A DNA stretch of 64,000 bases, from assembly GCA_964490975.1 (NCBI GenBank), contig CAZBEQ010000012.1, positions 1,559-65,558 of the forward strand, read 5' to 3'. The notes under the pieces were generated by a model that was not told the DNA's origin, made no database searches, and worked only from the letters and a program-made list of their open reading frames with translations. The stretch comes from an uncultured Oscillospiraceae bacterium (GTDB lineage Bacteria; Bacillota; Clostridia; Acetivibrionales; DTU013). This document shows, one piece after another, positions 11,666 to 60,201 of the stretch. Each line of letters starts with the position of its first letter. Position 1 is the first letter of the stretch. Made by a program: the position numbers and the translations under genes.

Positions 11666-11700
11666 TTGCAAACAAACAGAAGGCTCAATAGAAGAAGTAA

Positions 11701-12041: not shown

Positions 12042-12045
12042 GTTT

Positions 12046-13528: not shown

Positions 13529-13587
13529 TGATCCATTTATGCTTGTCAGCATTTTTTACCCCGGTTTGTACGACGTAATTGCCGGTA

Positions 13588-13925: not shown

Positions 13926-13937
13926 AGGGTGATTTAA

Positions 13938-43589: not shown

Positions 43590-43632
43590 TTGTTTTCCCG
43601 CTTTCTTTTTGATAATAGTGTAACTAACTTTT

Positions 43633-43661
43633 ATTATACCCGTAATCATTGAAAATGTTAA
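43633..43661 (-). promoter_or_regulatory. Sigma-A-type promoter of the murA-like gene
   Basis: On the minus strand: TTAACA (plus 43656-43661), a 17-nt spacer and TATAAT (plus 43633-43638). Confidence 0.5.
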
Positions 43662-43690
43662 ACATATTTTTTACATAATACTCAAAAAAG

Positions 43691-43710
43691 TGCTAGAAAA
43701 TGCTAGAAAA
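43691..43710. repeat. Perfect 10-bp tandem duplication TGCTAGAAAA x2
   Basis: Read directly at 43691-43700 and 43701-43710. It lies between the Memo-like stop and the murA-like promoter. Confidence 0.9.
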
Positions 43711-43728
43711 ACATGGCAAAACGTAATT

Positions 43729-44778: not shown

Positions 44779-44827
44779 TCGTTTCCTCCATTCAGCTAAT
44801 ACCTTGATATTTACTGTTATCTGTGTT

Positions 44828-47800
44828 TTATTTGTTAATCGTCACCTTTACTTTTTTTGAGAAGCTTGCAATATCTTTATCGGTGTGGCGTATAGCTGCA
44901 CTGTCAGCAGTATATATACCGGGCGAAACAACCTTTGCATAATACTGTATCGTTTTATCATTGTCGGTGAGTGGATAGTTTTTATTGTAATAATATCCGA
45001 ATACGGCCTTTTGGCCAGTTACTTCATTTGCATAGTTCCAGTTGTTTTCAGTGCCTTCCTGACCGTATACAGGCTGAATATACCTAAGGCCTGCAGGCAG
45101 TATGTCAGTAACCTCATAATAGCCATCCGGAGCATTCTCTTCAAAGTCAACTGTCAACGTTACTCTTACGATTTCAGAGCGGTTAAAGGCTCTTACAGGC
45201 CCCTTTCTGCTTCCTGTATCGTAGGCTCGGTCGATACTTAAAAGATCAGAGTTGTTTTTCATTTGCTCACTTATTGGTGTTGTATATGAAGAAGCTACCT
45301 GTATATTGCCCGTTATTCCGCTGAATTTAACTGCTGCCAGCCTCTCGGGTGTGAGTATCATACTGAAGGAGCTGCCCTTTTGCAATTCCACCTGCTTTTT
45401 TTCGCCATCCAGTTCGTATGTAAAGCTGCTGACCAGGGATGCATCCTTGATGTAGTTAGTCACAAATATCATCCGTTCCAGATTTACAAGGAGCTTGGAG
45501 GTTGAGTTGGATTCTATATAATTTAGCAACTTGATTTTTTCGGGAGCATTTATTTTCATCGCTATCAATGTGCTTATCGCAGTTGCGTCTATGCTGTCAT
45601 CCCTGCTTCCATTTTCGATCCATGCAAAGGTATCGGTGGCTTTCACTGAGTCCTTCATTGCAGCCTTGTATACTTCAGCAGCACCTTGATGGTCACCTGC
45701 TTCGGCAAGTGCAGCTCCAAGCACAAGCTTAGATTTCAGATCCAGGCCTTCCTCCTTGAGCATGGAACGTATATCAAGCAATACCGGCTCTTTAAGAGCT
45801 GCAAGACCCCAATATGCATAGATTACATCCTCCGGCGCAGTTTCTTCACTTTCGATAAGACTTCTGAAATAGAAGGCAAGGGCACCGCGGTCTATGCTAT
45901 CCGCTGCCAGCGAGCACATTTTTGCCGATAATTCCGGACTGCTGCTGTCATAGGGGAGCAGTGCAAGACCGCCATCGCCCATCTGATACTCTGATAGGTC
46001 AGGTTCGTCGAAGCTGTACATGCTCTCATTGAAATAATTCTGCAGCAATTTACCCGATATTTTTCTTGAAAGTACCTGGTCAAGCCTTTGTCCCCAGCTC
46101 CAGTAAAGCTGATGCAGTTCGTTATAAAGAACAGAGGAGTCTTCATTGTAGAATACCAGAGTAGTAAGTCCCTTTGTTCCATTTGTAACAGAAGTGCTTT
46201 CAGAAAGCTTTGTATAGTCTGTTACGGTGGTTTCGAGCATACTGTCAGACACAGTGAAACTGCGTTCCATAGCATCAGAAAGACTGCCGCAGGAGCCTTC
46301 GATCCTCACTGTATAAGTGCCCTGAGCCAATTCATCAAGCTGCAGCTCGTGGTAGAGGTTTGAAGCACCCTTTGTTATATATGAGCCTCTGCTCCGCCCA
46401 TTGATATCGGTAATTGTGACTTTAAAGCTTACTTCATCACCCGCTTTGAGCTCATTGCCATTTGCACTGACCATTATTGAAGGTGTGTCTCCTGTCAGGA
46501 AACGCTTATTGAATATACTGTCAACGAAAAATGGCAGCTTGGAGGAAATATTGATAGTGTTGCTTCCGGCACATACATCTTTAGTCACAGCTTGAGTAGT
46601 TACTCTCCAGGATGTAAGATTGTCAGGCATTTTGAAGGTTACTTCAGTTTTTCCGTCTGTGCCGGTATTAACTGTGGTGAAGAGTGCAGTGTCCTTAAAA
46701 TCCTTTCTGACACTTTCATTACCGCCTTCTCCGCCCATCTCGGCCATCGGAGAGCCAAATTCATCCATTGCTTTGAATGAAAGATATTCTGAGAGAAGTC
46801 CGGAAGATACTGACTGTTCATATAATGATGAAAGAGTATCGGTATATTGCGGATAAAGTGCAAAGAATGCTTCGTCTACAAGGCTGATATTGACCTCTGA
46901 AGCAACGGGCTTTCCTGAGCCGTCCTTTACCAGAACTGTGAGCTTGACCTCATCGCCGGGCTTATAGCTTTCCTTATCAGACTTTATATCTATATCAAGT
47001 TTTTTCTCGCTCATGTCAAATTTATACATTGCAATGCCGGCATCGTATATACCGTTACCGTCAAAACACAGCGCTTTTACATAGAGATTTGGTATAAATT
47101 CTTTGTCGAAACTGAAGTTGTATACTGCATTCTCAGAAACATTACAATCCAGTATACCGCTTCTCATCCGAACGAACAGGTATTTCCGGCTGTCTCCGGT
47201 ATAGGGCTCTTCTTTGTTATACCTGACTTCTGCGGTGATCTGCTCGCCGGTTTTATATTGCCTCTGCCAATCTGTTGTTATAGTATAAGCATCTTTGTAA
47301 TATGGGTCAAAACTATCCCAGTTATATACATAGATGGAATCTGATATCGGACGGCCTTTAGAGTCGTTTGCGAATATTTCGGCCACATATTGCTTATCCG
47401 AATCGGATTCATATTGTAAGGTATATTTCCCATTCTCCGTATTAAAGATATATTCCTTTACAAGGTTCTGTACTTCATAATACTCATAGGTGTCACGCCT
47501 TACCTTGTTGATGTAATCATAGTAATCGCCTGTTTTCTTTTTCTCATAGTGCTTTTCGTAAAGCTTCACTGACAACGGTATATTGACTTTTTCACCTCTG
47601 TAGTCATCCTCCAGATAATAGCTTTTATCCAGATCCTTCAGCTTTGATATGTCGATCCTGCTGGTAGTGAAGGTTATATTGCCGATGCCGTTCTCTGTCT
47701 TTGTTTCAGTCTCTATCATGGTATCCTTTGGAAATACACTAATATTGGTGTATTCACTTGTCTGCTGTTCCTGAGCGTCGCTGTTGCTTACATCAAAAGA

Positions 47801-49825
47801 CAGACTGACCGGTCTCCAGCCAGCATCGGGGGTCGTTCCCTTTACAGACAGCTTAGCCTTTCCGTTACTGTCACAGACAAGAGTCCCGTTTACAGGATTT
47901 ATATAGGAAATCGATTGTGTATAGTCAAGATAGATTCCTGAAGCGGGTGTGCCTTCGAAGAAAGAGGAGGTAATGTCGAAATTCACAGTATCCCAGGCAT
48001 ACATACAGTTTTTGTCGGGTTTTACATCAATTCTGTATACAGGTTTTGTATAATCCATTATCTGCAGATAACGCGTGAGCATGACCTTGCCGCCGACTTT
48101 CAGACGGACTTCATATGATCCGGGATTGTAGTTGTTGATCTTCAGGCTGCCCGCGTAAGTACCATCAGGAGAAATTGTAACGCTTTGTGAGGTTAAAACA
48201 GAAGTACTGTCATCATTCGAAGAATAGTAATTATAACTGATTAGTTCAAGCTCTGCCTCGGTTTCGGTGACAGCAGTGTTTCTTGGCTTGAGGATGCCCC
48301 ACACATTTATAGTATCGCTCGTCAGGTATACGCTCCTGTCAAGATATATGTAAGACCAGTAATTATCAACAAACGAAGAATCATAATTGTTATACATTGA
48401 GTAGTATGTATCGTATCGAACGCATGCAACAAACGGAAGTCCTGTTTTTGGCTTAATAGTAAAGTAATTCGCTGAGGTGTCGGATTGCACAGGTGTATTG
48501 TCAAGTTCAGCTAGGCCATTGCTGTCCGTTTCTGAAGATGCGCCCTGGTCGAGTGTGAAGGAAGCCCCGGAAATAGGCTTGCCGCTTAAAGTATCGTTCA
48601 ACCATAATAAACTCTTATCCTTTGTGGTCATGATGTACACTGAAGCGGTATTGACCTGCAGCTGAACGAAATATTTTTCACCGTCTATTTCGGTTACTGC
48701 CAGGTAGTAGCCTTCAGCCAACTGGGAGGGGAACAGCAGATAATTATTACTCCAGTAGGAGGATGTCTTATGTTGTATGATCTGTCCCTGAAAGGAAGAT
48801 ATTTTTGCCAGCCTGGTCAGATCATAAATATCCTTTCTGTTATCGGTTGCCCAACTGGGGCCTGATTCAGCTTTCTTGAGATCATTCATGAAGCTTTCAG
48901 TATCGGGGTAGCTGTATATTTCTACGGGAAGCTCCTGGTTAATAAGGCTTTCCTGTGTATATACTTCAAGCGCAGGAACTGTTTGCGGTGTGAAGTTATA
49001 CATGTTATCTGAAAATGAGAAATAAATACCGGATTCATCAGCGTTTTCAGACACGGTCTGGAATCTGAAGGAGTAGTCGTTTTGGAGCTCATCCTTGCTT
49101 CCGGCCACTCTAAGGCCTTTTTTTATTGTTACGGTATAAATGGTATCTGCATCAAGATCATTTTCAGGAACAAAAACAAGTGTCTTTTTATTCCATTCGA
49201 AACGACCGTTGACTTTTGGAGATATTTCAAAATATCTGTCGGCGTTTTCCAGACCGTCATTGCTGAAGGTTATCTCTATGCCTGAGTTTAGTGGTATACC
49301 TACCGATTTATCACGGGGCATGGTTCGGATGACCCTGAACTGTCTTTTGGTCTGGAAGGCCCAGGATTTTTTTTCGCCGGTATTTTTATCGTTGAGTGAA
49401 ACATTATATATGCTGTCACTTTTTAGAGGCTTATCAAATTTCATTGAAAATTCTTTATCAGAAAGCTTTTTTATACTGAATGCCTGTGCAGGTTCAACGA
49501 TCAATGAGGCAGCAAGGGCCTGTTCATCGGCAGCTTTGCTGAATAGCAGCCTGAATGCCGAGGTTGTGCTGACACCAAGACTGTCTGATTCATTGGCCGA
49601 TATGTCTACGACTGACTCCATAAGGCCGGACAGGGCATTTGGGTCTATAGCCACATCCTGTTGCATATCTGTGCTGGCTGGTGTAGTGGGTTCCTCTGCT
49701 CTTCCGAGGTTACCGAATACTCCCGTCAGTGCTGCTATAACAATTGCCGCCAGCAGTACTACGGCTGATATTGATATTATCACTGCCGCCTTGCTTTTAA
49801 ATAACCCCTTAAACCCATTAATCAT
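44828..49825 (-). CDS. Alpha-2-macroglobulin-family giant protein, membrane-anchored, no thioester motif
   Basis: Start re-set to the ATG at 49825 (GGTGAGG RBS). About 1665 aa with an N-terminal TM helix and many Ig-like/MG-type beta-domains. The A2M_N_2-like segment reads EVNISLVDEAFFAL. No CxEQ thioester motif appears anywhere in the translation. Confidence 0.75.
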   Translation of the reverse strand: MINGFKGLFKSKAAVIISISAVVLLAAIVIAALTGVFGNLGRAEEPTTPASTDMQQDVAIDPNALSGLMESVVDISANESDSLGVSTTSAFRLLFSKAADEQALAASLIVEPAQAFSIKKLSDKEFSMKFDKPLKSDSIYNVSLNDKNTGEKKSWAFQTKRQFRVIRTMPRDKSVGIPLNSGIEITFSNDGLENADRYFEISPKVNGRFEWNKKTLVFVPENDLDADTIYTVTIKKGLRVAGSKDELQNDYSFRFQTVSENADESGIYFSFSDNMYNFTPQTVPALEVYTQESLINQELPVEIYSYPDTESFMNDLKKAESGPSWATDNRKDIYDLTRLAKISSFQGQIIQHKTSSYWSNNYLLFPSQLAEGYYLAVTEIDGEKYFVQLQVNTASVYIMTTKDKSLLWLNDTLSGKPISGASFTLDQGASSETDSNGLAELDNTPVQSDTSANYFTIKPKTGLPFVACVRYDTYYSMYNNYDSSFVDNYWSYIYLDRSVYLTSDTINVWGILKPRNTAVTETEAELELISYNYYSSNDDSTSVLTSQSVTISPDGTYAGSLKINNYNPGSYEVRLKVGGKVMLTRYLQIMDYTKPVYRIDVKPDKNCMYAWDTVNFDITSSFFEGTPASGIYLDYTQSISYINPVNGTLVCDSNGKAKLSVKGTTPDAGWRPVSLSFDVSNSDAQEQQTSEYTNISVFPKDTMIETETKTENGIGNITFTTSRIDISKLKDLDKSYYLEDDYRGEKVNIPLSVKLYEKHYEKKKTGDYYDYINKVRRDTYEYYEVQNLVKEYIFNTENGKYTLQYESDSDKQYVAEIFANDSKGRPISDSIYVYNWDSFDPYYKDAYTITTDWQRQYKTGEQITAEVRYNKEEPYTGDSRKYLFVRMRSGILDCNVSENAVYNFSFDKEFIPNLYVKALCFDGNGIYDAGIAMYKFDMSEKKLDIDIKSDKESYKPGDEVKLTVLVKDGSGKPVASEVNISLVDEAFFALYPQYTDTLSSLYEQSVSSGLLSEYLSFKAMDEFGSPMAEMGGEGGNESVRKDFKDTALFTTVNTGTDGKTEVTFKMPDNLTSWRVTTQAVTKDVCAGSNTINISSKLPFFVDSIFNKRFLTGDTPSIMVSANGNELKAGDEVSFKVTITDINGRSRGSYITKGASNLYHELQLDELAQGTYTVRIEGSCGSLSDAMERSFTVSDSMLETTVTDYTKLSESTSVTNGTKGLTTLVFYNEDSSVLYNELHQLYWSWGQRLDQVLSRKISGKLLQNYFNESMYSFDEPDLSEYQMGDGGLALLPYDSSSPELSAKMCSLAADSIDRGALAFYFRSLIESEETAPEDVIYAYWGLAALKEPVLLDIRSMLKEEGLDLKSKLVLGAALAEAGDHQGAAEVYKAAMKDSVKATDTFAWIENGSRDDSIDATAISTLIAMKINAPEKIKLLNYIESNSTSKLLVNLERMIFVTNYIKDASLVSSFTYELDGEKKQVELQKGSSFSMILTPERLAAVKFSGITGNIQVASSYTTPISEQMKNNSDLLSIDRAYDTGSRKGPVRAFNRSEIVRVTLTVDFEENAPDGYYEVTDILPAGLRYIQPVYGQEGTENNWNYANEVTGQKAVFGYYYNKNYPLTDNDKTIQYYAKVVSPGIYTADSAAIRHTDKDIASFSKKVKVTINK

Positions 49826-50059
49826 GTCCAACCTCACCTTTCGCAGCAATTATGTCACAGCTGCAACAAATATCTGATAATGTCCGATGACCCACCGGTT
49901 ACTAATGCCATAGCTTACCTGCATACCTACTGTATATTTTACCATTAATCTCTAAGACGTAGAATACATATATTTTGTTTCAAAAACCCTAAATTTCTAT
50001 AGTCAATTGTGTTAAAATATGTATGCTTGTGGTCAATATCATTGGGAAGGAAATTAAGA

Positions 50060-51418
50060 ATGCATACTATCGAACCGCCAAAGGAAGTTATGCATATCAT
50101 TGGAATACTTGAAGAGTATGGCTATGAATCGTACGCAGTAGGTGGCTGTGTACGCGACCTGGTCATGGGAAGGATGCCAAAAGACTGGGACATCACCACT
50201 AGTGCATGCCCGGAAACGGTGAAGGGGCTATTTGAAAGGACCCTGGACACCGGATTGAAGCATGGTACTGTGACAGTATTGATAGACAAGGCCGGCTATG
50301 AAGTCACGACATTTCGTATCGACGGTAATTATGAGGACGGCAGACATCCGGAATATGTGGAGTTCACAGGGAGTATTGAGGAGGATCTTCGGCGGAGGGA
50401 TTTTACCATCAATTCGATGGCATGGAATCCCGAAAGCGGAATCATAGACCTATTCGGAGGTATGAGAGATATAGCAGCAGGAATAGTACGAGCTGTGGGA
50501 GATCCGGCGGAGAGATTCAGGGAAGACGCGCTCCGCATGCTGCGAGCGGTGAGATTTGCTGCAAGGCTGGGATTTGATATAGAGTCTGGCACCTTTGATG
50601 CTATTAAAGACAACAGCTGCCTTATACAAAAAGTCAGTGCTGAGAGGATCAGGGAAGAACTTACAGGTATACTGATGTCAGAAAAGCCTGCAAAATTTAG
50701 CATTTTGATGGAAACCGGGCTTTTGGAACATATTTTATCACATTTCCAGTATTCATATGATTTACCAGCTGTAGGAGGACTTTGTGAAGGCTCTGTCGAA
50801 TCTAGTTTAAATGCTATTGCTGCTGTTGAAGCTGACATATGCTTAAGGTGGACAATGCTGCTGCGATACCTTGGAAAATATTTCGCAGGAGAAGCTTTCC
50901 CAAAATGTTGTGAAGCTGCAGGATGTGTTGGTGATATGCCCGGTAAAAATGTGGAAAGTATAGTGTTGGCAGAAGCTATACTGCGCAAGTTGAAATTCAG
51001 CAATAAAAATGCTGACAGGATACTGTGTCTGCTGAGATATTCAGATATGTATATCGGGACTGGACCGGGCGATGTTGCAAGGGCTGTATTTGAGGTTGGA
51101 GATGATATCTTTACCGACCTGCTTAAAGTCAAAAGGGCAGATGCTCAGATAAATGAAACATCATTTATATCTGATGCTGTAAGCTATATCGATGGGATCG
51201 AAAAAATCTACTGTGATTTACTTGCCTCCGGATGTTGTATGAAGCTGAAGGACCTGGCTGTGAATGGGGAGGATTTGATGCGAATCGGATTTAGTGAAGG
51301 CAGCGATATCGGAAGTACGCTGTCATATCTGCTTGATTGTGTTATGCAGGCACCTTGGCTGAATGTGAAGGATACTCTGGAGAAAATGGCGTTGGAATTA
51401 CTCGAAGCCCGGTCATAA
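50060..51418 (+). CDS. cca: CCA-adding tRNA nucleotidyltransferase / poly(A) polymerase-family enzyme
   Basis: Start re-set to the ATG at 50060. YAVGGCVRDLVMGRMPKDWDITT and RRDFTINSMA motifs, plus a C-terminal extension. Confidence 0.85.
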   Translation: MHTIEPPKEVMHIIGILEEYGYESYAVGGCVRDLVMGRMPKDWDITTSACPETVKGLFERTLDTGLKHGTVTVLIDKAGYEVTTFRIDGNYEDGRHPEYVEFTGSIEEDLRRRDFTINSMAWNPESGIIDLFGGMRDIAAGIVRAVGDPAERFREDALRMLRAVRFAARLGFDIESGTFDAIKDNSCLIQKVSAERIREELTGILMSEKPAKFSILMETGLLEHILSHFQYSYDLPAVGGLCEGSVESSLNAIAAVEADICLRWTMLLRYLGKYFAGEAFPKCCEAAGCVGDMPGKNVESIVLAEAILRKLKFSNKNADRILCLLRYSDMYIGTGPGDVARAVFEVGDDIFTDLLKVKRADAQINETSFISDAVSYIDGIEKIYCDLLASGCCMKLKDLAVNGEDLMRIGFSEGSDIGSTLSYLLDCVMQAPWLNVKDTLEKMALELLEARS

Positions 51419-51456
51419 AGCAAACTCAGCCGGCTTTACGGGCACTAAACGGCTGC

Positions 51457-51485
51457 TTGACAGCCGCAATAGGCAAGAATATAAA
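51457..51485 (+). promoter_or_regulatory. Sigma-A-type promoter of fabI
   Basis: TTGACA (51457-51462), a 17-nt spacer and TATAAA (51480-51485). Confidence 0.5.
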
Positions 51486-51508
51486 AAGATTAGAAAGGAA
51501 GGTATTAG

Positions 51509-52279
51509 ATGGGAGATCTACTTAGAAACAGAAACATTATAATAATGGGTGTGAGGAATAAATGGAGTATTGCCTGGGGAATAGCTGAGGCTGCTCACAG
51601 GGAAGGGGCATCGCTTATATTCACATATCTTGGTGAACGAGAAAAAGCCGATGTCGAACGCCTTGCAAATGAACTCGGAAATGTGGAGACTTTCCAGATG
51701 GATGTCACATCTGATGAGGATATCGACAAATTTTTTGACGAAATAAAGGGAAAATACGGAGTGATACATGGCCTTGTTCATGCGGTTGCATATGCAAAGG
51801 CAGAGGATCTGCGTGACAGTTTTCTGAACACCTCCAGGGAAGGGTATGCGCTGGCACTCGATATAAGCGCCTACTCACTCGTCGCCGTCAGCAGGAGAGC
51901 AAGCGGGCTGATGACAGATGGCGGAAGTATTGTGACATTGACATATATGGGCGCGGAAAAGGTATTTACGGGCTACAATGTAATGGGTGTAGCTAAGGCA
52001 GCTCTTGAGGCAGGGGTAAGATATCTGGCAAGTGATATGGGCCCTATGGGGATAAGGATAAATGCCATATCGGCCGGCGCAGTCAAGACGCTGTCTGCCA
52101 AAGGAGTGAAGGATTTCAGCTCGATCCTTAAGCATACCCAGGAGAAGGCACCGTTGAGGAGGAACGTTGAAACAGGAGAAATAGGTAATACGGCTGTATT
52201 CCTTCTCAGCGATATGTCGGCAGGCACCACCGGTGAGATAATCCATGTGGATGCGGGTATTAATATAATGGGTATATAA
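51509..52279 (+). CDS. fabI: Enoyl-[acyl-carrier-protein] reductase (NADH), FabI type
   Basis: 256 aa. GVRNKWSIAWGIA..., Y-x6-K context (YNVMGVAKAALE) and INAISAGAVKT. Confidence 0.9.
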   Translation: MGDLLRNRNIIIMGVRNKWSIAWGIAEAAHREGASLIFTYLGEREKADVERLANELGNVETFQMDVTSDEDIDKFFDEIKGKYGVIHGLVHAVAYAKAEDLRDSFLNTSREGYALALDISAYSLVAVSRRASGLMTDGGSIVTLTYMGAEKVFTGYNVMGVAKAALEAGVRYLASDMGPMGIRINAISAGAVKTLSAKGVKDFSSILKHTQEKAPLRRNVETGEIGNTAVFLLSDMSAGTTGEIIHVDAGINIMGI

Positions 52280-52280
52280 C

Positions 52281-52328
52281 GGGGCGGCGAGGATATCTCC
52301 TGCGTCGTTGAAACAAAGTGTTATAAAC
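52281..52328 (+). repeat. Dispersed intergenic repeat, copy A
   Basis: GGGGCGGCGAGGATATCTCCTGCGTCGTTGAAAC followed by AAAGTGTTATAAAC. It shares the G-run, ATATCT and CGCNTCGTT(A/G)(T/A)AAC blocks with the copies at 56280, 62857(rc) and 62919. Confidence 0.7.
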
Positions 52329-52329
52329 A

Positions 52330-52370
52330 AAAGGGACATGGGTTTTGATTTTCTTTACCCATGTCCCTTT
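52330..52370. terminator. Bidirectional terminator between fabI and the SPT-like gene
   Basis: AAAGGGACATGGGT (52330-52343) pairs perfectly with ACCCATGTCCCTTT (52357-52370). Confidence 0.85.
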
Positions 52371-52400
52371 AATTCTTTGACTGATTATCTGATTATCTCA

Positions 52401-53585
52401 TTATCCCAGTTTCTCGAAGACCCTTTTGAAGGCTTCCAGCGTGTAATCCAACTGATCCTTTGTATGAGTTGCGGTGTAACTGGTCCTGATCCTGCATAGA
52501 CCGGGCTTGACAGCAGGTGATATTACAGGATTAACATAAACTCCCTCTTCGCGCAGCATTTTCGTTACCACGAGAGTAGGTTCATTTTCATATGTCATTA
52601 CAGGAACTATCGGTGTGATATCACTATTAGCTTCGTAAATCGGAATGTCAAGCTTTTTGAAGCCCTGTCTCATATATTGTGATATTTCTCTGAGCTTTTG
52701 GATGCGCTCCGGCTCGGCCTGGATTATTTCGAGCGCCGCAATGGCTGCCGCAGCGTTTGATGGCGGTATGGAAGCCGAGAAAATGAACGGCCTTGAATTA
52801 TGTTTTATGAAGTCAATAACATCCTGGCTTCCTGCAACGAAGCCACCAAGGCTGGCAAGTGATTTACTGAAGGTGCTCATTATCAAGTCGACTTCATCTT
52901 CGAGACCGAAGTGTTCTGCCGTACCTCTGCCATGATCACCCAATATGCCGAAGGAGTGGGCATCATCAACCATGACCCTGGCACCGTATTTCTTTGCGAG
53001 CCGTACTATGGAAGGCAGATCCGCGATATCTCCCTCCATGCTGAATATACCGTCTACAACAATGAGCTTTCCGTGGTTTTCATCAATCTTGGACAGAAGC
53101 CTTTCAAGATCCTCCATATCGTTATGTTCGAATTTGAGTGTCTTTGCAAAGCTGAGCCTGCAGGCGTCAACTATACTGGCATGATTTTCACAGTCACAGA
53201 GGATATAATCATTTCTGCCTGCTATAGCAGTTATGATTCCGAGATTTGTCTGGAAACCTGTACTGAAGGTGATAGCAGCATCTTTTTTAACAAATTCAGC
53301 CAGCTTTTTCTCCAACTCCAGGTGAAGAGTAAGCGTACCGTTGAGGAACCTTGATCCTGAGCAGCCTGAGCCGAATTTTTCTACTGCTTCTATTGCGGCC
53401 TTTTTTACTCTGGGATCAGAAGTGAGTCCGAGGTAATTGTTGGATCCTACCATTACGGTTTTTATTCCTTCTATAATAACTTCAGTATCCTGTCCTGATT
53501 CAAGCGCATGAAAATAAGGATAAAGGCCGGCTGCTAATACTTCTTTGTAATCAGTGTAATTAAAACATTTTTCAAAGATATCCAT
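52401..53585 (-). CDS. PLP-dependent alpha-oxoamine synthase, serine-palmitoyltransferase-like
   Basis: 394 aa. GSNNYLGLT, KFGSGCSGSRFLNGT, NHASIVD, DDAHSFG, STFSKSLASLGGFV (PLP Lys) and RPFIFSASIPPS. This motif set is closer to my recollection of bacterial SPT (KFGSGTNGSRMLNGT, RPYIFTASLPPS) than of Kbl or BioF. Confidence 0.8.
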   Translation of the reverse strand: MDIFEKCFNYTDYKEVLAAGLYPYFHALESGQDTEVIIEGIKTVMVGSNNYLGLTSDPRVKKAAIEAVEKFGSGCSGSRFLNGTLTLHLELEKKLAEFVKKDAAITFSTGFQTNLGIITAIAGRNDYILCDCENHASIVDACRLSFAKTLKFEHNDMEDLERLLSKIDENHGKLIVVDGIFSMEGDIADLPSIVRLAKKYGARVMVDDAHSFGILGDHGRGTAEHFGLEDEVDLIMSTFSKSLASLGGFVAGSQDVIDFIKHNSRPFIFSASIPPSNAAAAIAALEIIQAEPERIQKLREISQYMRQGFKKLDIPIYEANSDITPIVPVMTYENEPTLVVTKMLREEGVYVNPVISPAVKPGLCRIRTSYTATHTKDQLDYTLEAFKRVFEKLG

Positions 53586-53955
53586 AGCTAAGTAATCTCT
53601 CCTTCACATTTGTCTGGCAAAATAAAACTTAAACCTCAAATATTTTATCACATAATATCCAATAAGTATATATTACATCTTAGGCAAAATATGATAGGAT
53701 GAAGTATTATTAATCAAGCACGCTTGACATTTTTTCAACTAGGGTGCAAATTTATGTGCATAATTGTGTATAATAGCCATTACGGTAAACGGATTGATAT
53801 GATAATGTGATCGATTGTATTGTTATGTAACTTTTGTGCACCGAAGTTGATTTTTTGTCATTATCTATAGACGCGATCGTATTTATGCTTTATGTTTAAT
53901 CTATTGAGTTTCTGTGATAAAATGTAAAAAAAGAAATGAGATCGGGAGAAGCAAA

Positions 53956-54783
53956 ATGAAAAAGTATTATGGCAATGTTGTACTTATTACAGGGGCATCC
54001 TCCGGCATCGGAAAATCATGCGCTGAATATATAGCTGGCCTGGGCTACAAGGTCTATGGCACCTCTAGGAAGGCTCCTGAAAATGAGTTTGAAGTCAGGG
54101 AAAATGAGATAACCATGATCCGGATGGATGTATGCAGCGATGATTCCGTTAGTGCGGCAATTGAGAGGATCATTGAACTCGAAGGTGAGATAGGTATCGT
54201 TGTCAATAATGCCGGTATGGGGATCGCGGGCGCTGTTGAAGATACATCTCCGCAAGAGGCTTTTTTACAGATGGATACCAACTTTTTCGGAGTACACAGG
54301 GTCATACGGCAGGTGCTTCCGCATATGAGGAAGAAGGGCAGAGGGCTGATCATTAATATGTCATCTGTCGGAGCGCTTTTTCCGATACCTTATCAGTCCA
54401 TGTATGTAGCAGCCAAGGCTGCTGTCGAAGGAATGACAGGAGCATTGAGGAATGAACTGAGACCATTTGGCATAAAAGTTGCATTTGTTGAACCCGGAGA
54501 TACAAAAACCGGCTTTACAGGCAGCAGGATAATGACAAGCGAAAGCGGAGAGGAATCTGCATATAGCGAATATTGTAAAAAGTCCATTGCTGTTATGGAA
54601 AGGGATGAAACCAACGGCCCAGATCCGATTGTTGTCGCAAGGGTTATCGGAAGGCTGGCAAAGAGAAAAAACCCTCCTGTTTGCATAACAGTCGGGCTTC
54701 AGTACAAAATACTCGTATTTTTCAAAAGGCTTATTCCAAAATCTTTGGAATCCTATGTTTTATCAAAAATGTACAAAGGTTGA
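53956..54783 (+). CDS. Short-chain dehydrogenase/reductase (classical SDR)
   Basis: Start re-set to the ATG at 53956. TGASSGIGK cofactor motif, NNAG and the S...YxxxK catalytic set (SSVG...YVAAK). Confidence 0.85.
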   Translation: MKKYYGNVVLITGASSGIGKSCAEYIAGLGYKVYGTSRKAPENEFEVRENEITMIRMDVCSDDSVSAAIERIIELEGEIGIVVNNAGMGIAGAVEDTSPQEAFLQMDTNFFGVHRVIRQVLPHMRKKGRGLIINMSSVGALFPIPYQSMYVAAKAAVEGMTGALRNELRPFGIKVAFVEPGDTKTGFTGSRIMTSESGEESAYSEYCKKSIAVMERDETNGPDPIVVARVIGRLAKRKNPPVCITVGLQYKILVFFKRLIPKSLESYVLSKMYKG

Positions 54784-54789
54784 TCGATG

Positions 54790-56100
54790 CTATCTGAGGA
54801 GAGGGGAGTAATGCCTCTCCATTTTTCCTGTTGCAAGGACCTCCATGATCTTGCTTGCGCCGAGTTTTCTTGCATAAAGGAAGCCATCCCAGGCTGCAAG
54901 CGAGAGCTTGCCATCTACAAGGTAATCGGTGATCCATTCACTACAGTACTGAGGATCAGACTGGTGAAGACCGGCGCCGAGATCACGCAGCCAGCGCTGA
55001 TTGTAGACTTCGTGAGGACCTATTGGCGGGGCGATTATGATCGGTATCCCAAGGCCGCAGTAGAAGGAAAGCTCTGATGGTTTGGTCCACAAAATGTCGG
55101 TATCTCTCATAATTTCATTGAACTGCCGGAAGTATTCGTTTTTATCCTTATTAAAAATTATCCGGATTCCATCTGACATAGCTAATCCATATTTCTGTAT
55201 AAGCTTTTCGAAATAGTCATTAACTTCCTGCCTGTGAGCAGCGATAAGATTCAAGCGGATCTTGCCTTCTTTGATCATGTTTGACAGACTTTTCACGGCA
55301 CTGCCCGCGATCTCAGCCTGAGCTCCGGCTCCGCCGACTGCATATGTCAATGTTATAGGGCCTGCTTCTTCGTTAGGATCCCAATCGTCACCAAGATAGT
55401 ATCTGACCTCTTCGCCGTGGATTACTCTGAAACGCTTTGTGGGATCGAGCCGGATCAATCTTTTTGCCAGATCCCTTCGCAGTATGCCCATATTTTTTCC
55501 TATATTCTCCTGTGGTAGAGGAAAGCCGGTCAGAAAGATCCTTTCATCCGGTACGCCATATTCCTTCAGACGCCGCATAGCGTTGCCGCAGGGGGCAAAA
55601 TATACGATCCTGCTCTCATGTGATCTTTCTGCTACCCAAACTCGGTTTATATCAGCATCACAAATAATACAGTAGACAGGAAGGTCAGTAAGCTCTTCCG
55701 CTGCTATTGCCGCAGCATAGAACGATGTAACAACAGGCAGCCGCTGGGTGTCGAGCTTCAGGCTCATTCCCTTTCCCATACCGCGGTCGATAAGCGTATA
55801 AAGTGATTTTACCTGCAGGGACGGTCCTGATTGATCGCGTCTGGGATAATAAGGCGAAATATTCTGGAGCTTTTCAAGGAAACTGAATAAATATGAACCG
55901 ATGAGAGGAAGCCTTCTGATTCTTGATAAGGACTCATAGGAGTTCTGGAATATTTTCCATTGCCTCTTCTCCTTTTTTTGACACATTTCATCTTCGCCGA
56001 ATAGCTGAACACCGCCATAGGCCAGATCCCTCAAAGGATATGTTGCTCTCTGATGGCCCAAGCCCATATTCGCAGATATGATCCATGCACTGTTTTCCAT
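54790..56100 (-). CDS. GT-B-fold glycosyltransferase-like protein (MGDG-synthase/MurG-like N-terminus)
   Basis: Start re-set to the ATG at 56100 (GGAGG RBS). 436 aa. N-terminal IISANMGLGHQRA resembles the G-x-GH motif of GT28-type lipid glycosyltransferases. The functional call is tentative. Confidence 0.45.
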   Translation of the reverse strand: MENSAWIISANMGLGHQRATYPLRDLAYGGVQLFGEDEMCQKKEKRQWKIFQNSYESLSRIRRLPLIGSYLFSFLEKLQNISPYYPRRDQSGPSLQVKSLYTLIDRGMGKGMSLKLDTQRLPVVTSFYAAAIAAEELTDLPVYCIICDADINRVWVAERSHESRIVYFAPCGNAMRRLKEYGVPDERIFLTGFPLPQENIGKNMGILRRDLAKRLIRLDPTKRFRVIHGEEVRYYLGDDWDPNEEAGPITLTYAVGGAGAQAEIAGSAVKSLSNMIKEGKIRLNLIAAHRQEVNDYFEKLIQKYGLAMSDGIRIIFNKDKNEYFRQFNEIMRDTDILWTKPSELSFYCGLGIPIIIAPPIGPHEVYNQRWLRDLGAGLHQSDPQYCSEWITDYLVDGKLSLAAWDGFLYARKLGASKIMEVLATGKMERHYSPLLR

Positions 56101-56198
56101 ACGCCGCCTCCAGTAACAAAGGTTATGTAAGCATATAAATATTTTAGCAGATATTGACGGAGTATGAAAGATAAATACTGAAATGATGCAAGCTTGAT

Positions 56199-56234
56199 AA
56201 AAACAAAAAGAGATAAGCAACTAAGCCTATCTCT
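56199..56234 (-). terminator. Terminator downstream of the PspC-domain gene
   Basis: On the minus strand, AGAGATA...TATCTCT (plus 56209-56215 / 56228-56234) is followed by TTTTTGTTTTT. Confidence 0.7.
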
Positions 56235-56242
56235 CGACTAAC

Positions 56243-56311
56243 GTTATAACACTTCGGTTCAAAGAAAACTTTTCGAGAAGTGGGGGACATTTTTGACGCC
56301 TCGTTATAAAC
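56243..56311 (+). repeat. Dispersed intergenic repeat, copy D (both modules)
   Basis: GTTATAACACTTCGGTTCAAAGAAAACT (56243-56270) matches the reverse complement of 62837-62864, with 25 of the first 26 nt identical. GTGGGGGACATTTTTGACGCCTCGTTATAAAC (56280-56311) matches the reverse complement of 62857-62885. Confidence 0.75.
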
Positions 56312-56317
56312 AGTTTT

Positions 56318-56524
56318 TTACCAATTGTTATATTTGCAGCTGCTGCGTCTGGGTATCACTATCCAGGCTATGAAATATGCAAGTAGTCCGACCCCTTCCA
56401 GGAAAATCGAAAGGAACCAGAGCAGCCTGACGATCGTAGGGTCTATTCCAAAGTATTCTCCAATACCTCCGCATACGCCACCAATTTTTCTATTGGAATC
56501 AGATAAGTAAATTCTTCTATCCAT
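56318..56524 (-). CDS. PspC-domain small membrane protein
   Basis: Start at the ATG at 56524 (AAGGAG RBS 8 nt upstream). MDRRIYLSDSNRKIGGVCGGIGEYFGIDPTIVRLLW.. is the canonical PspC domain. Confidence 0.8.
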   Translation of the reverse strand: MDRRIYLSDSNRKIGGVCGGIGEYFGIDPTIVRLLWFLSIFLEGVGLLAYFIAWIVIPRRSSCKYNNW

Positions 56525-56629
56525 ATCATACACTCCTTTTACAAATGATCTCTTTCAGCAATTTATGTTTTACATTAAATCATACGTATTGAAGGTGTAC
56601 GTGTCTGATTTTATTTTCGCATTTTTATG

Positions 56630-57301
56630 TCAAGTTCTGATGAGGTCAGAAATCTTATTTTTCAGGATCATATCGGCAAAGCCTCCCGGCTTGATCCGTT
56701 CCTGGACTATGATACCGCCTCTTGTCTCATCACCATATCTGTGAAAGTCTGAACCGGACAGCATTTTCAGTTTGTTGTCCCGGGCAAATTCAAGGGCTAG
56801 ATGGTTTGCTGAATCATGCCTCGGATTGCCATTATACACTTCGACTCCGTCAATGAGCTCAGGTGCGGCAGTTACCATGTTTGCCCGGAAGGGGTGAGCC
56901 TGGACGATCACGATGCCGTTGCCTGCGGTTAGCTTCCGAAAGTTCTTCAGTCCGAGCTTGTATAGCTTTTTGTTCGCTTTGAGGAATTCCTCGTCAAAGC
57001 CATATATCAGATAGTCATTTGGATTCTCATCAAAACGCAGTTCCATACCAAGATGGATGTCCACACCGAGTTTTTGTCCCTCTTCAAGCGCACAATGATA
57101 GCCTTCCAGATAAAAGCCGATTTTTCTCTCCCATTTGCTCAATGGATACATATCAAAGAATCGCCTGGAATAATGGTCGGTTACAACAATACCTGTATAC
57201 CCAGCTTCATGGTAAAGCCTTACTGCCGCGGCCGCAGGCACTTTCCCGCAGGGACTGGTTTCATTGGTGTGAAAATGTGTTTCGTATTTATATATATCCA
57301 T
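56630..57301 (-). CDS. PHP-domain metal-dependent phosphoesterase
   Basis: About 223 aa. N-terminal ETHFHTNETSPCG and later VVTDH, QAHPFR and SGSDFH motifs. The start is uncertain (ATG at 57301 or GTG at 57310). Confidence 0.75.
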   Translation of the reverse strand: MDIYKYETHFHTNETSPCGKVPAAAAVRLYHEAGYTGIVVTDHYSRRFFDMYPLSKWERKIGFYLEGYHCALEEGQKLGVDIHLGMELRFDENPNDYLIYGFDEEFLKANKKLYKLGLKNFRKLTAGNGIVIVQAHPFRANMVTAAPELIDGVEVYNGNPRHDSANHLALEFARDNKLKMLSGSDFHRYGDETRGGIIVQERIKPGGFADMILKNKISDLIRT

Positions 57302-57441
57302 AAAGTCCACTCTTAAGGCAAGTTTTTTCTGATTATAGCATATTTTTATTTAAATGTATTTATCGGGATGAATATTATTATATAATATTTATTGGGAATG
57401 GCATGGAAAGTTAAGGCAAATTGGTAAGGGAGGACTTTTGT

Positions 57442-58638
57442 ATGATCAGGGAGGGTATTTTACGTTTCATATACCAGGCTGCCAGTATGCAGCGGTGGAA
57501 TGATCATATCAGGCCGGGTAAAGGCTTTACCGAACTGGATAAGCAGGCGCATAAGCTCTTCTATGCGTATATTCTTGGAAAGCTTGAGGAGGAGACCTGC
57601 CCTGTTGACTGGATAAAGCTGATGGAAGGTGCAATATTCGAGTTCCTCCACAGGATATTGCTTACTGATATAAAACCAGCAATATTCCATATGCTTATGG
57701 AAAAGCATGGACAGCAGCTAAACAAGCTAGTGATGGACAGGCTTGCAGAGATCGGCATAAATGATATACCAAGGGGCTTCGGAAAGAGAATGGAACAGTA
57801 CCTCTTGGATCCTGAGTACAGCTTGCATGAAAAAAAGATACTCAATGCATCGCACTATATGGTGACCAACTGGGAGTTTGACATAATATATCGTATGAAC
57901 GAAGGCCTTTACGGAATTGAGGAGACAAAAAGGAATCTGCAGAAGCAGTTGGAGGAACACCAGAATATTGATGGCGTCCGTAAGCTTGTTTTCAACCAGG
58001 GAGCGTCGGATTTTCTCAACCTGATAGGACAGCTGAGGTTCCAGCAGAGATGGGCGCAGACACAGAGGATACCTGAGACCTCGGTAGCAGGTCACATGTT
58101 GATAGTGGCGTTGTTTTCATATATATTGACTCTGGAGTTCGACGCGTGCGACAAGCGGAGGTATAATAATTTCTTTGCAGGCTTGTTCCATGACCTGCCG
58201 GAGGTTTTGACAAGAGATATAATATCGCCTGTGAAAAATTCTATTGATGGTCTGGGAGAGCTGATAAAGACGATCGAGGATATGCAGATGGAAGAGATGC
58301 TGCTCCCGTTACTGCCTGAAAAATGGAGGCAGGAGATACGATATTTTACTGAGGATGAATTTACATGCAAGATAGTTCTGGATGATAAAATCATACAGGT
58401 CAGCACTGATAAAATAAATGAATACTACAATGAGGATTTGTTTTCTCCTGTGGATGGCAGTATAATAGAGTTCTGTGACAAGTTTGCCGCATATATGGAG
58501 GCATATCTGTCAATTAAGCATGGCATTTCTTCTAAAAATCTGGTTGATGGGCACAAGGATCTTTACAGCAGGTTCGCAAGGACTAATATTGCAGGCATTG
58601 ATGCAGGTGTCCTGTTTGACTATTTCCGTCTGGACTAA
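57442..58638 (+). CDS. Tandem YfbR-like HD-domain protein (degenerate N-terminal copy, intact C-terminal HD)
   Basis: Start at the ATG at 57442 (AAGGGAGGA RBS). The C-terminal half reads QRWAQTQRIPETSVAGHMLIVAL...GLFHDLPEVLTRDIISPVK and matches the YfbR 5'-deoxynucleotidase pattern. The N-terminal half, MQRWNDHIRP...ELDKQAHK...FLHRILLTDIKP, has HR in place of HD. Confidence 0.7.
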   Translation: MIREGILRFIYQAASMQRWNDHIRPGKGFTELDKQAHKLFYAYILGKLEEETCPVDWIKLMEGAIFEFLHRILLTDIKPAIFHMLMEKHGQQLNKLVMDRLAEIGINDIPRGFGKRMEQYLLDPEYSLHEKKILNASHYMVTNWEFDIIYRMNEGLYGIEETKRNLQKQLEEHQNIDGVRKLVFNQGASDFLNLIGQLRFQQRWAQTQRIPETSVAGHMLIVALFSYILTLEFDACDKRRYNNFFAGLFHDLPEVLTRDIISPVKNSIDGLGELIKTIEDMQMEEMLLPLLPEKWRQEIRYFTEDEFTCKIVLDDKIIQVSTDKINEYYNEDLFSPVDGSIIEFCDKFAAYMEAYLSIKHGISSKNLVDGHKDLYSRFARTNIAGIDAGVLFDYFRLD

Positions 58639-58675
58639 TGAAAGGGTCGGAGCTTTTGTTCTGAATGAGGATCGC

Positions 58676-59308
58676 ATGAATAAGCTTATGGGGTTTTATG
58701 AGTTGAAGAGTTTAAATATTCCTACAGTGCCGTGGAAGCTTTTCAGCACCGATACTGTGCTGGATCCTGACCTGCTGTGGACTGTAAGGGTAGCTACTAC
58801 AGCCGGAAGCGACCTCAATCTGCCCAGAGCTGTTGGAGTGGGTGCCGATGAGGCTTATTTGAAGGGCAAGGCATTTCTTAAGGAATTTGCTTATAAAGGC
58901 ATTGTTATATATTATCCCTACTTTATAGCTGAAAAGAGCGGAGTGCTGGATTTGAACAGCCAAAGGACCGTAATAGAGGCAGTTGAAAGGGATCTTTGGA
59001 ATCTTGTGACCTATGGCAGAAAAAATGTTACTGTGATAGCGCAAACCGCCCAACCGCAAAGCGCAGGTGTACAAAGCGCAGCCGGAGATCTTCAATTTTC
59101 AGGAGATGAAGCCTTTCTCCTGCCTGATGAAATAAAGGAGCTTATTAGGTATGGTGCTTTAATACGCGGCAGATATAGGGATGAAATAAATGTGGGGGGC
59201 TCGATCCTTGCCGAGTGGAGCTATGCATACAACACTGATAGAAGTCACATGCCCGTCGGGGACAGATATCTGGTTTTCTATGAACTAAGAGGGCTCCCTG
59301 TGCTTTGA
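58676..59308 (+). CDS. Hypothetical protein, weak ATP-grasp / PPDK-N-like resemblance
   Basis: Start re-set to the ATG at 58676 (GAGGA RBS). 210 aa. ..LNIPTVPW....WTVRVA...NLPRAVGV....IVIYYPYFIAEKSGVLDL....TVIEAV..DLW. It lies 38 nt after the HD gene. Confidence 0.45.
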   Translation: MNKLMGFYELKSLNIPTVPWKLFSTDTVLDPDLLWTVRVATTAGSDLNLPRAVGVGADEAYLKGKAFLKEFAYKGIVIYYPYFIAEKSGVLDLNSQRTVIEAVERDLWNLVTYGRKNVTVIAQTAQPQSAGVQSAAGDLQFSGDEAFLLPDEIKELIRYGALIRGRYRDEINVGGSILAEWSYAYNTDRSHMPVGDRYLVFYELRGLPVL

Positions 59309-60018
59309 TGTTTTTTGCCAGATGCAAAAGGCAGGTACAATAGTATGAATAATACCAGTGCCACTGCCTCAAGAGATAATATGTACCATGGCCAGGGACC
59401 GAGCAGGTCCAGCAACGAACCGTCGGGTTTCCGGCTAAGGAAGAGGTAGTTCCCGCCTGTCAGTTTATTTATCGGTATAATGATGGCAGCGTAGGCGTTT
59501 GTGATCAGGAATGTTCTGATGACTGATCTGCTGGATGGCCTGAATTTTTCAATTGCCAGTATATATACGCAGACAAACAGGATAGCCCAGTGGGATATGA
59601 AGTACTGGTAATATACAAAGTGGGGGAAGGTATAAGGGCCTATTGAGGGAGTAAGCAGTGCCTGTGTCGCGCCTCCAAATCCCCAGTAGTAAAGCAGCTC
59701 CGACAACAGCTGTTTTTTTGTCAGCAGGACTGCTATTGTCAGGAAAAGTGAAAGATCGCACAGCTGCAGCGGAAGTGTGATCTCCAGTGACCACTCGCCA
59801 GCCGCTGTATACCAAATATAAATAGAAGCCTGCTGTATAGTAATAAATGCTGTAAGTATATATCTGAATGTTTTTTTTGCTTTGTCAGCTATTATAAGTT
59901 TTCGGAAAAAAACTAATGCTAAACACAAAATAACTGTGATTATCAGTGGTATTGTGTGATGCCACGAGTAAGGCACCATATTTCCATTGCTTTCGCCAAA
60001 GATGATCCGGTTTTCCAT
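59278..60018 (-). CDS. TIGR02206/YwaF-family (TMEM164-like) membrane protein
   Basis: Start at the ATG at 60018 (GGGAGG RBS). 246 aa and polytopic. LPLQLCDLSLFL...YYWGFGGATQALLTP...PHFVYYQYFISHW. Confidence 0.7.
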   Translation of the reverse strand: MENRIIFGESNGNMVPYSWHHTIPLIITVILCLALVFFRKLIIADKAKKTFRYILTAFITIQQASIYIWYTAAGEWSLEITLPLQLCDLSLFLTIAVLLTKKQLLSELLYYWGFGGATQALLTPSIGPYTFPHFVYYQYFISHWAILFVCVYILAIEKFRPSSRSVIRTFLITNAYAAIIIPINKLTGGNYLFLSRKPDGSLLDLLGPWPWYILSLEAVALVLFILLYLPFASGKKHQSTGSPLSS

Positions 60019-60201
60019 TTTATGGCCAGCCTCCCTTTCTGATATTTCTAACATATTCCATTATATCAATAAATATGTGATGGCGACAGGTTTCAGTAAA
60101 ACGAACAGGTGAATATATTGATATTGACGTTACTATCCGTTTTCATTAGATACTAAAGTGATGGATGGTAAAAAACCCCTGACTGGTCAGTGAGGAATAG
60201 T

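Follow-up and report, generated by a model that had tools for sequence, protein, structure and literature searches.

We analysed a 64,000-nucleotide stretch of a genome assembled from an uncultured Oscillospiraceae bacterium (positions 1,559 to 65,558 of contig CAZBEQ010000012.1, assembly GCA_964490975.1; the whole stretch is called the window here, and coordinates are counted from its first letter). Our focus was on two divergently oriented neighbours, one encoding an alpha-oxoamine synthase (AOS; 52401-53585, minus strand, 394 aa) and the other a classical short-chain dehydrogenase/reductase (SDR; 53956-54783, plus strand, 275 aa). Taken together, the data suggest that these genes form an Spt-KdsR module, in which a serine palmitoyltransferase (SPT) and a 3-ketodihydrosphingosine reductase would jointly make a sphinganine-type long-chain base. 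Judging from sequence, we put the probability of this reading at about 0.68, and it appears probable that some Clostridia make sphingoid-base lipids.

The AOS is a fold-type I pyridoxal 5'-phosphate (PLP) enzyme (Pfam Aminotran_1_2, 198.7 bits). The motifs quoted in an initial annotation of the region are all present and exact; in the AOS these are GSNNYLGLT at residues 47-55, KFGSGCSGSRFLNGT at 70-84, STFSKS at 237-242 with the Schiff-base Lys241 (encoded at 52863-52865), GGFV at 247-250 and RPFIFSASIPPS at 265-276. Among the NCBIfam models for this superfamily, the best match is NF047600, which represents SPT of the Bacteroidota (CFB) type. It scores 562.8 bits and leads all other AOS-family models by 150 bits, namely TIGR01825 (413 bits, cut-off 535.4), two Kbl models (401 and 321 bits, cut-offs 460 and 493), beta-proteobacterial SPT (398 bits, cut-off 500), bioF (397 bits, cut-off 426), ALAS (272 bits, cut-off 338.55) and CqsA (216 bits, cut-off 428). 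The equivalog cut-off of NF047600 itself is 640 bits, and since the AOS fails it, we call the enzyme SPT-type rather than a certified member of the family. A sequence search against PDB gave Sphingobacterium multivorum SPT (SmSPT) 457 bits, ThAOS from Thermus 303, Sphingomonas paucimobilis SPT (SpSPT) 293, Kbl 281, cysteate acyltransferase chains 253-264 and CqsA-type chains 122. Identity to the window AOS is 55% for SmSPT, 42% for ThAOS, 40% for SpSPT, 36% for E. coli Kbl and 34% for E. coli BioF. In a neighbour-joining (NJ) tree of the window AOS, 26 relatives and five references (SulA, HemA and CqsA not being among them), the window AOS, its relatives and SmSPT share one clade, with SpSPT, Kbl, ThAOS and BioF outside; bootstrap support is 60%, with few references in the tree.

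The active site points in the same direction. Of 21 positions mapped from high-resolution structures of SmSPT (PMC10196870), 20 are kept in the window AOS (N52, G80, S81, F83, L84, N85, F114, H138, S185, D210, A212, H213, T241, S243, K244, F272, S273 and A274 in SmSPT numbering, together with Y27 and F28 of the acyl-tunnel wall), the exception being M271, which is replaced by Ile as in SpSPT. Thus K241, H135, D207 and H210 of the AOS align with K244, H138, D210 and H213 of SmSPT. E. coli Kbl departs from SmSPT at nine mapped positions where the window AOS matches, and the mapped residues are near-invariant across 86 related locus sequences. Spt and SulA are told apart by a single active-site residue, Ala in Spt and Lys281 in SulA (PMC9304779). 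At the SulA-281 position (A274 of SmSPT) the window AOS has Ala271, i.e. the Spt-type residue. The initial annotation had judged the AOS closer to SPT than to Kbl or BioF and had proposed a check of its substrate-specifying residues; family models, solved structures and active-site residues bear that judgement out, the tree tends the same way, and on these grounds we assign the AOS to the SPT type.

Other identities of the AOS were considered and rejected on sequence. The Kbl/BioF reading is rejected on model scores, identity, active-site residues and gene context: Pfam and NCBIfam scans of 42306-61176 found none of the bio genes (bioA, bioB, bioD) and no tdh within ~8 kb either side of the AOS. 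A SulA or cysteate acyltransferase is rejected on account of Ala in place of Lys at the diagnostic position and of far weaker PDB scores, and CqsA and ALAS on account of their NCBIfam and PDB scores. In public databases, close homologues of the AOS are nonetheless named BioF ('8-amino-7-oxononanoate synthase') or 'aminotransferase class I/II'.

The SDR (Pfam adh_short, 155 bits) has the TGxxxGxG and NNAG motifs and the Ser-Tyr-Lys catalytic residues of classical SDRs, in the form of TGASSGIG at residues 12-19, NNAG at 84-87, MSSVG at 135-139 (Ser136/137) and YVAAK at 150-154. The basic TSRK segment (36-39) that follows the second strand would be typical for NADP(H) users. The best NCBIfam family is NF049977, KdsR, with 288.2 bits along the full length of the model (positions 4-267 of 267). 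This family comprises 3-ketodihydrosphingosine reductases and is defined by BT_0972 of B. thetaiotaomicron (PMC9278070). Since the margin of the score is modest, the assignment leans on gene linkage. The initial annotation regarded the SDR as the expected type of enzyme for reducing a 3-keto product, and this view is supported both by the top family and by a linkage to the AOS that outlasts rearrangements; we therefore treat the protein as a predicted NADPH-dependent 3-ketodihydrosphingosine reductase.

That linkage was surveyed in 80 genome loci encoding AOS relatives. A KdsR-like SDR adjoins the AOS in ~30 syntenic loci, and in 10 or more contexts that are rearranged or not syntenic. It is the divergent neighbour throughout a block of Acetivibrionales loci, and also at the remote loci L036, L037, L039 and L040 (AOS identity 70-73%) and at L041 (Christensenellaceae), L044 and L057 (62-64%). 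Elsewhere the SDR is co-directional with the AOS, lying either downstream (L032, L043, L056) or upstream (L045, L066). Six further AOS-adjacent SDRs in divergent, upstream or downstream position each have KdsR as their top NCBIfam family (194-306 bits). L032 lacks the divergent SDR; instead, another SDR of the KdsR-like kind, 34% identical, is found 9 bp past the AOS. The pair is also kept amid unrelated genes (L036, L037, L040, L041, L057, L085 and L088). The last of these is the cultured Fonticella tunisiensis, where Rnf and SIR2 genes surround the divergent pair; identity is 73% between its AOS and that of the window, 51% between its AOS and SmSPT, and 59% between its SDR and the window SDR. 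Downstream of the SDR, L043 and L056 contain GC-rich reverse-frame ORFs (open reading frames), which we do not regard as genes.

In other words, one SDR subtype is repeatedly linked to one AOS subtype, in rearranged order and independently of context, and for this reason we predict a two-step pathway rather than a chance arrangement. Adjacency by chance, which the initial annotation had listed as an alternative, is disfavoured by the recurrence of the pair in divergent, upstream and downstream arrangements among unrelated genes, so that the AOS-SDR adjacency is more than chance. The same annotation had asked whether the neighbourhood of AOS, SDR and a glycosyltransferase-like gene is conserved. 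For AOS and SDR it is, in many contexts; the third gene adjoins them only inside one synteny block.

According to the proposed scheme, L-serine would displace Lys241 and form an external aldimine on PLP, as predicted from homology and active-site identity. Decarboxylative condensation with a long-chain acyl thioester, in a Clostridium most likely an acyl-ACP (acyl carrier protein) of type II fatty-acid synthesis (FASII), would give 3-ketodihydrosphingosine. The SDR would then reduce the 3-keto group, probably with NADPH, to dihydrosphingosine (sphinganine); the best-matching family and the gene linkage suggest this step, which would correspond to the 'reduce first' route of Bacteroides. What might follow is speculative and could include N-acylation to dihydroceramide, head-group addition and export. 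A GT-B protein encoded next to the SDR may glycosylate the base or ceramide, or may just as well make diacylglycerol glycolipids, with its gene lying in the same block without a part in the pathway.

This GT-B protein (54790-56100, minus strand, 436 aa) is a putative lipid glycosyltransferase (GT). In Pfam it matches only DUF6938 (61 bits), without a match to MGDG_synth or Glyco_tran_28_C, and there are weak partial matches to diglucosyl-diacylglycerol synthase and processive diacylglycerol glucosyltransferase; the model PRK13609 gives 31 bits against a cut-off of 500. An AlphaFold2 model built from 31 homologues (predicted local distance difference test, pLDDT, 81.9; predicted TM-score, pTM, 0.82) has a GT-B fold. 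Foldseek placed the galactolipid synthase MGD1 of Arabidopsis on top for this model (E 6.5e-8, TM-score 0.44-0.58, 12-14% identity), followed by HepE, WaaG, MshA and SdgB, all top matches being GT-B enzymes. The GLGH motif occupies residues 13-16 (G-L-G-H16 at 56053-56064), and G13, G15 and H16 are invariant in the 31 homologues; we take the GxGH His to be the counterpart of the catalytic His of MGD1. The modelled fold thus makes 'lipid-glycosyltransferase-like', the label given by the initial annotation, a fair description. The DUF6938 family is large (6820 proteins at E < 1e-5), and our literature search found no paper mentioning it.

Membership of the DUF6938 protein in the pathway is uncertain. 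Its gene is adjacent in 24 loci, and L032 has a co-directional GT-AOS-SDR string; all of the DUF6938-adjacent loci, however, fall in one order-level synteny block. Even there the linkage varies. In L090 (8155-13200) and L091 (8144-13204), which belong to the same block as the window and have an AOS of 76% identity, an EamA transporter takes the place of DUF6938 beside the SDR, and an MFS transporter is located between AOS and FabI. In the metagenome-assembled genome (MAG) DUMB01 the AOS-SDR pair is found on L036 and DUF6938 on another contig, L086, where it lies (8001-14052) upstream of genes for a rhomboid protein, a PBP5-type carboxypeptidase and the lipoteichoic-acid synthase LtaS. The latter context hints at a cell-envelope glycolipid role. 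L084 carries DUF6938 without a nearby AOS, and more distant AOS-SDR pairs have neither DUF6938 nor FabI. In a long-read MAG (L039, 7551-8869), the DUF6938 gene is split by a frameshift into ORFs of 198 and 241 aa, which represents either a pseudogene or an assembly indel. A role in diacylglycerol glycolipids, for example in the lipoteichoic-acid anchor, seems at least as likely as one in sphingolipids. Consequently, of the earlier idea of a lipid GT acting in the pathway, the enzyme type is supported by the GT-B fold and by MGD1 as the nearest structure, but the linkage is variable and confined to one block, and the 'glycosylated derivative' proposed with it is speculation.

FabI (51509-52279, plus strand, 256 aa), the other gene that had been assigned to this cluster, scores 358 bits with NCBIfam NF006369 (cut-off 370) and 283 bits with Pfam adh_short_C2. 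In L037, L090/L091 and the Acetivibrionales block, no more than a few kb separate its gene from that of the AOS, and other genes often intervene; yet it looks like an ordinary enoyl-ACP reductase. We consider it probably a housekeeping enzyme that serves fatty-acid synthesis and could at best contribute acyl-ACP to the pathway. Proteobacterial SPT clusters carry a dedicated ACP or acyl-ACP synthetase. Our search for such genes found only an 86-aa PP-binding ORF beside DUF6938 in L085, recurring nowhere else. For the acylation step, tblastn searches with the Nitrospirota neighbours described below found neither a bCerS-like GNAT nor a CerR-like epimerase in the window or in the Clostridial loci. 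A purely tentative candidate for the missing N-acylation enzyme would be a TMEM164-related integral-membrane acyltransferase (59278-60054, minus strand, 258 aa; Pfam TMEM164) encoded ~3 kb beyond the DUF6938 gene; its TIGR02206 score of 203.8 bits is above the cut-off of 75, and the gene is syntenic only in L002, L003, L011, L015, L019 and L032.

Members of the same AOS clade occur in other contexts as well. In Nitrospirota, relatives with 57-59% identity have an epimerase/NDUFA9-family reductase on one side and a 368-aa GNAT on the other (L060, L062, L063, L069, L070 and L072, at ~9000-12400). The ceramide synthase bCerS belongs to the GNAT class of proteins. CerR, in turn, is NDUFA9-like (PMC11087976). 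The Nitrospirota trio therefore resembles the CerR-Spt-bCerS ceramide cluster in its protein classes; in PDB its GNAT has no relative beyond generic GNATs. L042 (7451-11173) has the co-directional string accD-accA-degV-AOS. In L045 (6507-9780) genes for a PAP2 phosphatase, a MobA-like NTP transferase and a KdsR-like SDR accompany the AOS, and this cluster could represent a phospho-head-group pathway. In two distant Clostridial lineages, a small protein with an ACT_7 domain (~126-140 aa), absent from the window, is encoded directly beside the AOS, either downstream (L049, L050, L054, L055, L064, L073, L074, L075, L078 and L080) or on its SDR side (L009, L016 and L018). It is possibly an amino-acid-sensing partner.

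Several observations weigh against a sphinganine-producing module. Both enzymes stay under the equivalog cut-offs of their best families, the AOS with 562.8 against 640 bits and the SDR with 288.2 against 400. For the SDR the generic models PRK06179 and PRK06182 come close to KdsR (246 against 288, a margin of 42 bits over PRK06179), and the clade that joins the window AOS with SmSPT has a bootstrap value of just 60%, the NJ tree being small and poor in references. Neither the window nor the Clostridial loci yielded an N-acyltransferase or ceramide synthase. Many AOS relatives from rumen Clostridiales have no adjacent SDR and have the ACT_7 protein there instead. The main discordant observation comes from Caldicoprobacter, in which the AOS (72-73% identical) is followed not by an SDR but by a co-directional gene for a 405-aa Zn-dependent dehydrogenase (L001, 1794-3005, in C. 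guelmensis; L035, 1716-2924, in C. oshimai). Its best NCBIfam matches are tdh (threonine dehydrogenase) models, although weak (152 bits against a cut-off of 458), and it could be a non-orthologous reductase or could signify different chemistry. Moreover, SPT-like genes are no guarantee of sphingolipids, since Nostoc punctiforme reportedly makes none (PMC8895605).

Three other explanations have to be weighed against this background. The pair might make some other long-chain amino-ketone or amino-alcohol instead of a membrane sphingolipid precursor, such as a 1-deoxy-sphingoid base derived from alanine or glycine, a base with a shorter chain, or a diffusible signal resembling that of CqsA/CAI-1. 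In the CqsA/CAI-1 route, too, a reductase acts on what the AOS has made. Enzymes of one AOS clade do vary in substrate, SulA and Spt differing at one residue (PMC9304779), and the two sub-threshold scores and the lack of a ceramide synthase nearby would fit such a product. The EamA and MFS transporters flanking the pair in L090/L091 would suit a product that is exported, and the ACT-domain protein beside the AOS in other lineages is a possible amino-acid sensor. Against this, the serine-contact and acyl-tunnel residues of SmSPT are kept, with M271 changed to Ile, and the scores for CqsA-type enzymes are much lower (NCBIfam 216 bits, PDB 122 bits). SmSPT itself uses alanine and glycine poorly (PMC10196870). 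Overall we regard a different product as rather unlikely. A housekeeping role, in which the AOS would be a glycine C-acetyltransferase (Kbl) acting with a dehydrogenase in threonine catabolism or BioF acting in biotin synthesis, was raised in the initial annotation. It can draw on the public names of close homologues, on Kbl and bioF models that still reach ~400 bits and on the tdh-like dehydrogenase in Caldicoprobacter. But the models miss their cut-offs (Kbl 401/460 and 321/493, bioF 397/426) and score far under SPT, identity is 34-36%, and the nine active-site positions that distinguish the two match SPT and not Kbl. Neither bio genes nor tdh occur in the ~8 kb scanned on either side, the partner is not Tdh but an SDR of the classical, KdsR-like type, and the Caldicoprobacter dehydrogenase is itself far below the tdh cut-off (152 against 458 bits). 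On sequence, the housekeeping role appears largely refuted, and we give it very little credence.

The remaining explanation is more ambitious than a two-gene module and holds that all four genes are coupled, with FabI providing acyl chains, AOS and SDR making the base and the DUF6938 protein turning it into a glycosyl-sphingolipid. The adjacency of DUF6938 in 24 loci and the co-directional GT-AOS-SDR string of L032 are in its favour, as are the GT-B fold, a lipid galactosyltransferase as the nearest solved structure, the invariant GxGH His and the presence of FabI near the AOS in L037, L090 and L091. However, the GT-adjacent loci amount to one synteny block, within which EamA replaces the GT in L090/L091; DUMB01 has DUF6938 on a separate contig near PBP5 and LtaS, and L084 has it without an AOS. 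Distant AOS-SDR pairs lack both GT and FabI, and in the window the genes belong to four transcription units. We therefore find full coupling unlikely. It is tempting to speculate further that genuine sphingolipids are made by monoderm Clostridia, among them Acetivibrionales from digesters, Fonticella, Christensenellales and lineages from the rumen, and that some of the enzymes involved are new. Spt-KdsR would provide sphinganine, the DUF6938 protein would represent a novel type of glycosyltransferase acting on sphingolipids or sphingoid bases, and N-acylation would be carried out by an enzyme unrelated to bCerS and eukaryotic CerS, e.g. the TMEM164-like one, so that glycosyl-(dihydro)ceramides would reside in a Gram-positive cytoplasmic membrane. 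We see this extended scenario as a long shot.

The intergenic region between the divergent AOS and SDR genes (53586-53955) holds a promoter-like element. It is the 31-bp sequence TATATACTTATTGGATATTATGTGATAAAAT at 53642-53672 on the minus strand, ~57-87 bp upstream of the AOS start, and consists of an extended -10-like TGTGATAAAAT and a conserved ATATATACTTAT box. The element occurs once only in the window. Of 17 related loci aligned with the window, most have it almost unchanged, including those of AOS relatives with only 70-76% identity (L039, L085, L090 and L091); in L037, L040 and L041 it is faint or missing. It is possibly a shared promoter or operator of the AOS. Promoter and terminator scans gave no signal above background, and no Rfam match to a riboswitch or other RNA element was found in the 49.5-60.5 kb interval, which includes the AOS-SDR intergenic region.

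As for the layout of the region, the four genes that the initial annotation had located in 51457-56100 are all present at those positions, and its account of their orientations is correct. FabI converges with AOS and SDR with DUF6938, whereas AOS and SDR diverge. The genes form four separate transcription units with no co-transcribed pair. Two starts were placed inside longer ORFs by means of identical public proteins: that of the SDR (ORF 53914-54783) at 53956, because protein P0241 is identical and has 275 aa, and that of DUF6938, whose ORF reaches 56220, at 56100, because the identical protein P0121 has 436 aa. Just 5' of 56100 there are a terminator-like and a promoter-like site. GC content is flat through the region (0.42-0.46), and there is thus no sign of recent insertion. 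The description of the genome as Clostridia-like also proved right, the nearest loci being those of Acetivibrionales/Hungateiclostridiaceae-type MAGs, many of them from anaerobic digesters, with AOS identity of 85-95%. Some other neighbours are conserved as well. Two genes at 56630-58638, between those for DUF6938 and the TMEM164-like protein, encode a 226-aa protein with a PHP domain and a YfbR-like protein of 405 aa with an HD domain; both are kept across the synteny block, and nothing obvious points to a function in lipid metabolism. On the other side, at 43729-49849 on the minus strand, a 1673-aa alpha-2-macroglobulin-like protein (A2M bait region, MG2, A2M and Big_5 domains) is followed on the same strand by a Memo-like protein. 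In the related loci this pair is kept beside the CCA-adding enzyme.

Bacterial sphingolipids are usually discussed for diderms, namely Bacteroidota, Sphingomonads, Caulobacter and Myxococcota. In these bacteria sphingolipids occupy portions of the outer membrane or take their place, and gut sphingolipids have a modulating influence on the host immune system. Our literature search on SPT or sphingolipids in Clostridia or Bacillota found no such paper, and the Gram-positive groups named in reviews are all small ones (PMC11087976). By phylogeny, Spt-like genes were inferred in 38 phyla in a survey of the Black Sea (PMC11334938), and for this reason Spt in further phyla is no longer very surprising; the supplements of that survey do not mention Firmicutes/Bacillota. 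In a recent preprint (10.1101/2025.09.11.675017), gut cultures enriched in Clostridia were rich in sphingolipids, and E. coli and B. thetaiotaomicron were the only species in which SPT was detected.

The chemistry that we propose is the known Spt-plus-KDSR route of Bacteroidota. What is new is the host group, monoderm Clostridia, the tight coupling of Spt and KdsR as a two-gene unit, and the finding that one Spt clade is accompanied by a KdsR-type reductase in Clostridia and by a CerR/GNAT-type set in Nitrospirota. If the proposal is correct, sphingoid-base synthesis would extend to monoderm Clostridia, including rumen and gut-type lineages, and the Bacteroides-type KdsR would be seen to travel with Spt as a two-gene unit. 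A widespread misannotation would be corrected at the same time, as homologues named BioF or aminotransferase class I/II make these genes invisible to metagenomic sphingolipid surveys. Cultured carriers exist: Fonticella tunisiensis has the AOS-SDR pair, and Caldicoprobacter oshimai and C. guelmensis have the AOS with the Zn-dehydrogenase.

Comparison with characterized systems helps to place the window genes. SmSPT (PDB 3A2B, 8GUH; NF047600) shares with the window AOS its fold, its length, 55% full-length identity and the PLP, serine and acyl-tunnel residues except for Met271, which is Ile. Both are stand-alone, soluble-type homodimeric AOS enzymes with no fused ACP or membrane domain. The window enzyme differs in falling below the 640-bit cut-off, in having a monoderm Clostridium rather than a diderm Bacteroidota member as host and in the divergent pairing of its gene with that of the presumed reductase. 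SulA of Alistipes, a sulfonolipid enzyme (PDB 7U7H), belongs to the same AOS superfamily and has the same catalytic cycle, but has the diagnostic Lys281 where the window AOS has Ala271, and cysteate acyltransferase chains reach 253-264 bits compared with 457 for SmSPT. For both SulA and bacterial Spt, acyl-ACP has been argued to be the likely physiological donor (PMC9304779). The GT28-type lipid glycosyltransferases (MGD1; UgtP/YpfP of Firmicutes) resemble the DUF6938 protein in the two-Rossmann GT-B fold, with MGD1 as the top Foldseek match, and in GxGH, whereas the window protein matches only DUF6938 in Pfam and has 12-14% identity and a TM-score of 0.44-0.58.

The two reductase types bear on the order of steps. 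Like KdsR BT_0972, the window SDR is a classical SDR with a Gly-rich NAD(P) motif, YxxxK and a full-length match to the model, C-terminal segment included, and this match implies the 'reduce base first' route. Its score remains at 288 bits compared with the cut-off of 400, and in Clostridia the reductase gene is tightly linked to that of SPT, unlike BT_0870 (SPT) and BT_0972, which are presumably not adjacent in B. thetaiotaomicron. The Caulobacter-type Spt-bCerS-CerR ceramide cluster, reportedly described by Stankeviciute et al. in 2022 (cited in PMC11087976 and PMC11334938), likewise begins with Spt, and its CerR and bCerS protein classes accompany the Nitrospirota members of our clade. In the window, however, tblastn found no GNAT/bCerS-like or epimerase-type gene. 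A classical SDR is present in place of the CerR type, which implies that in these Clostridia reduction would precede acylation.

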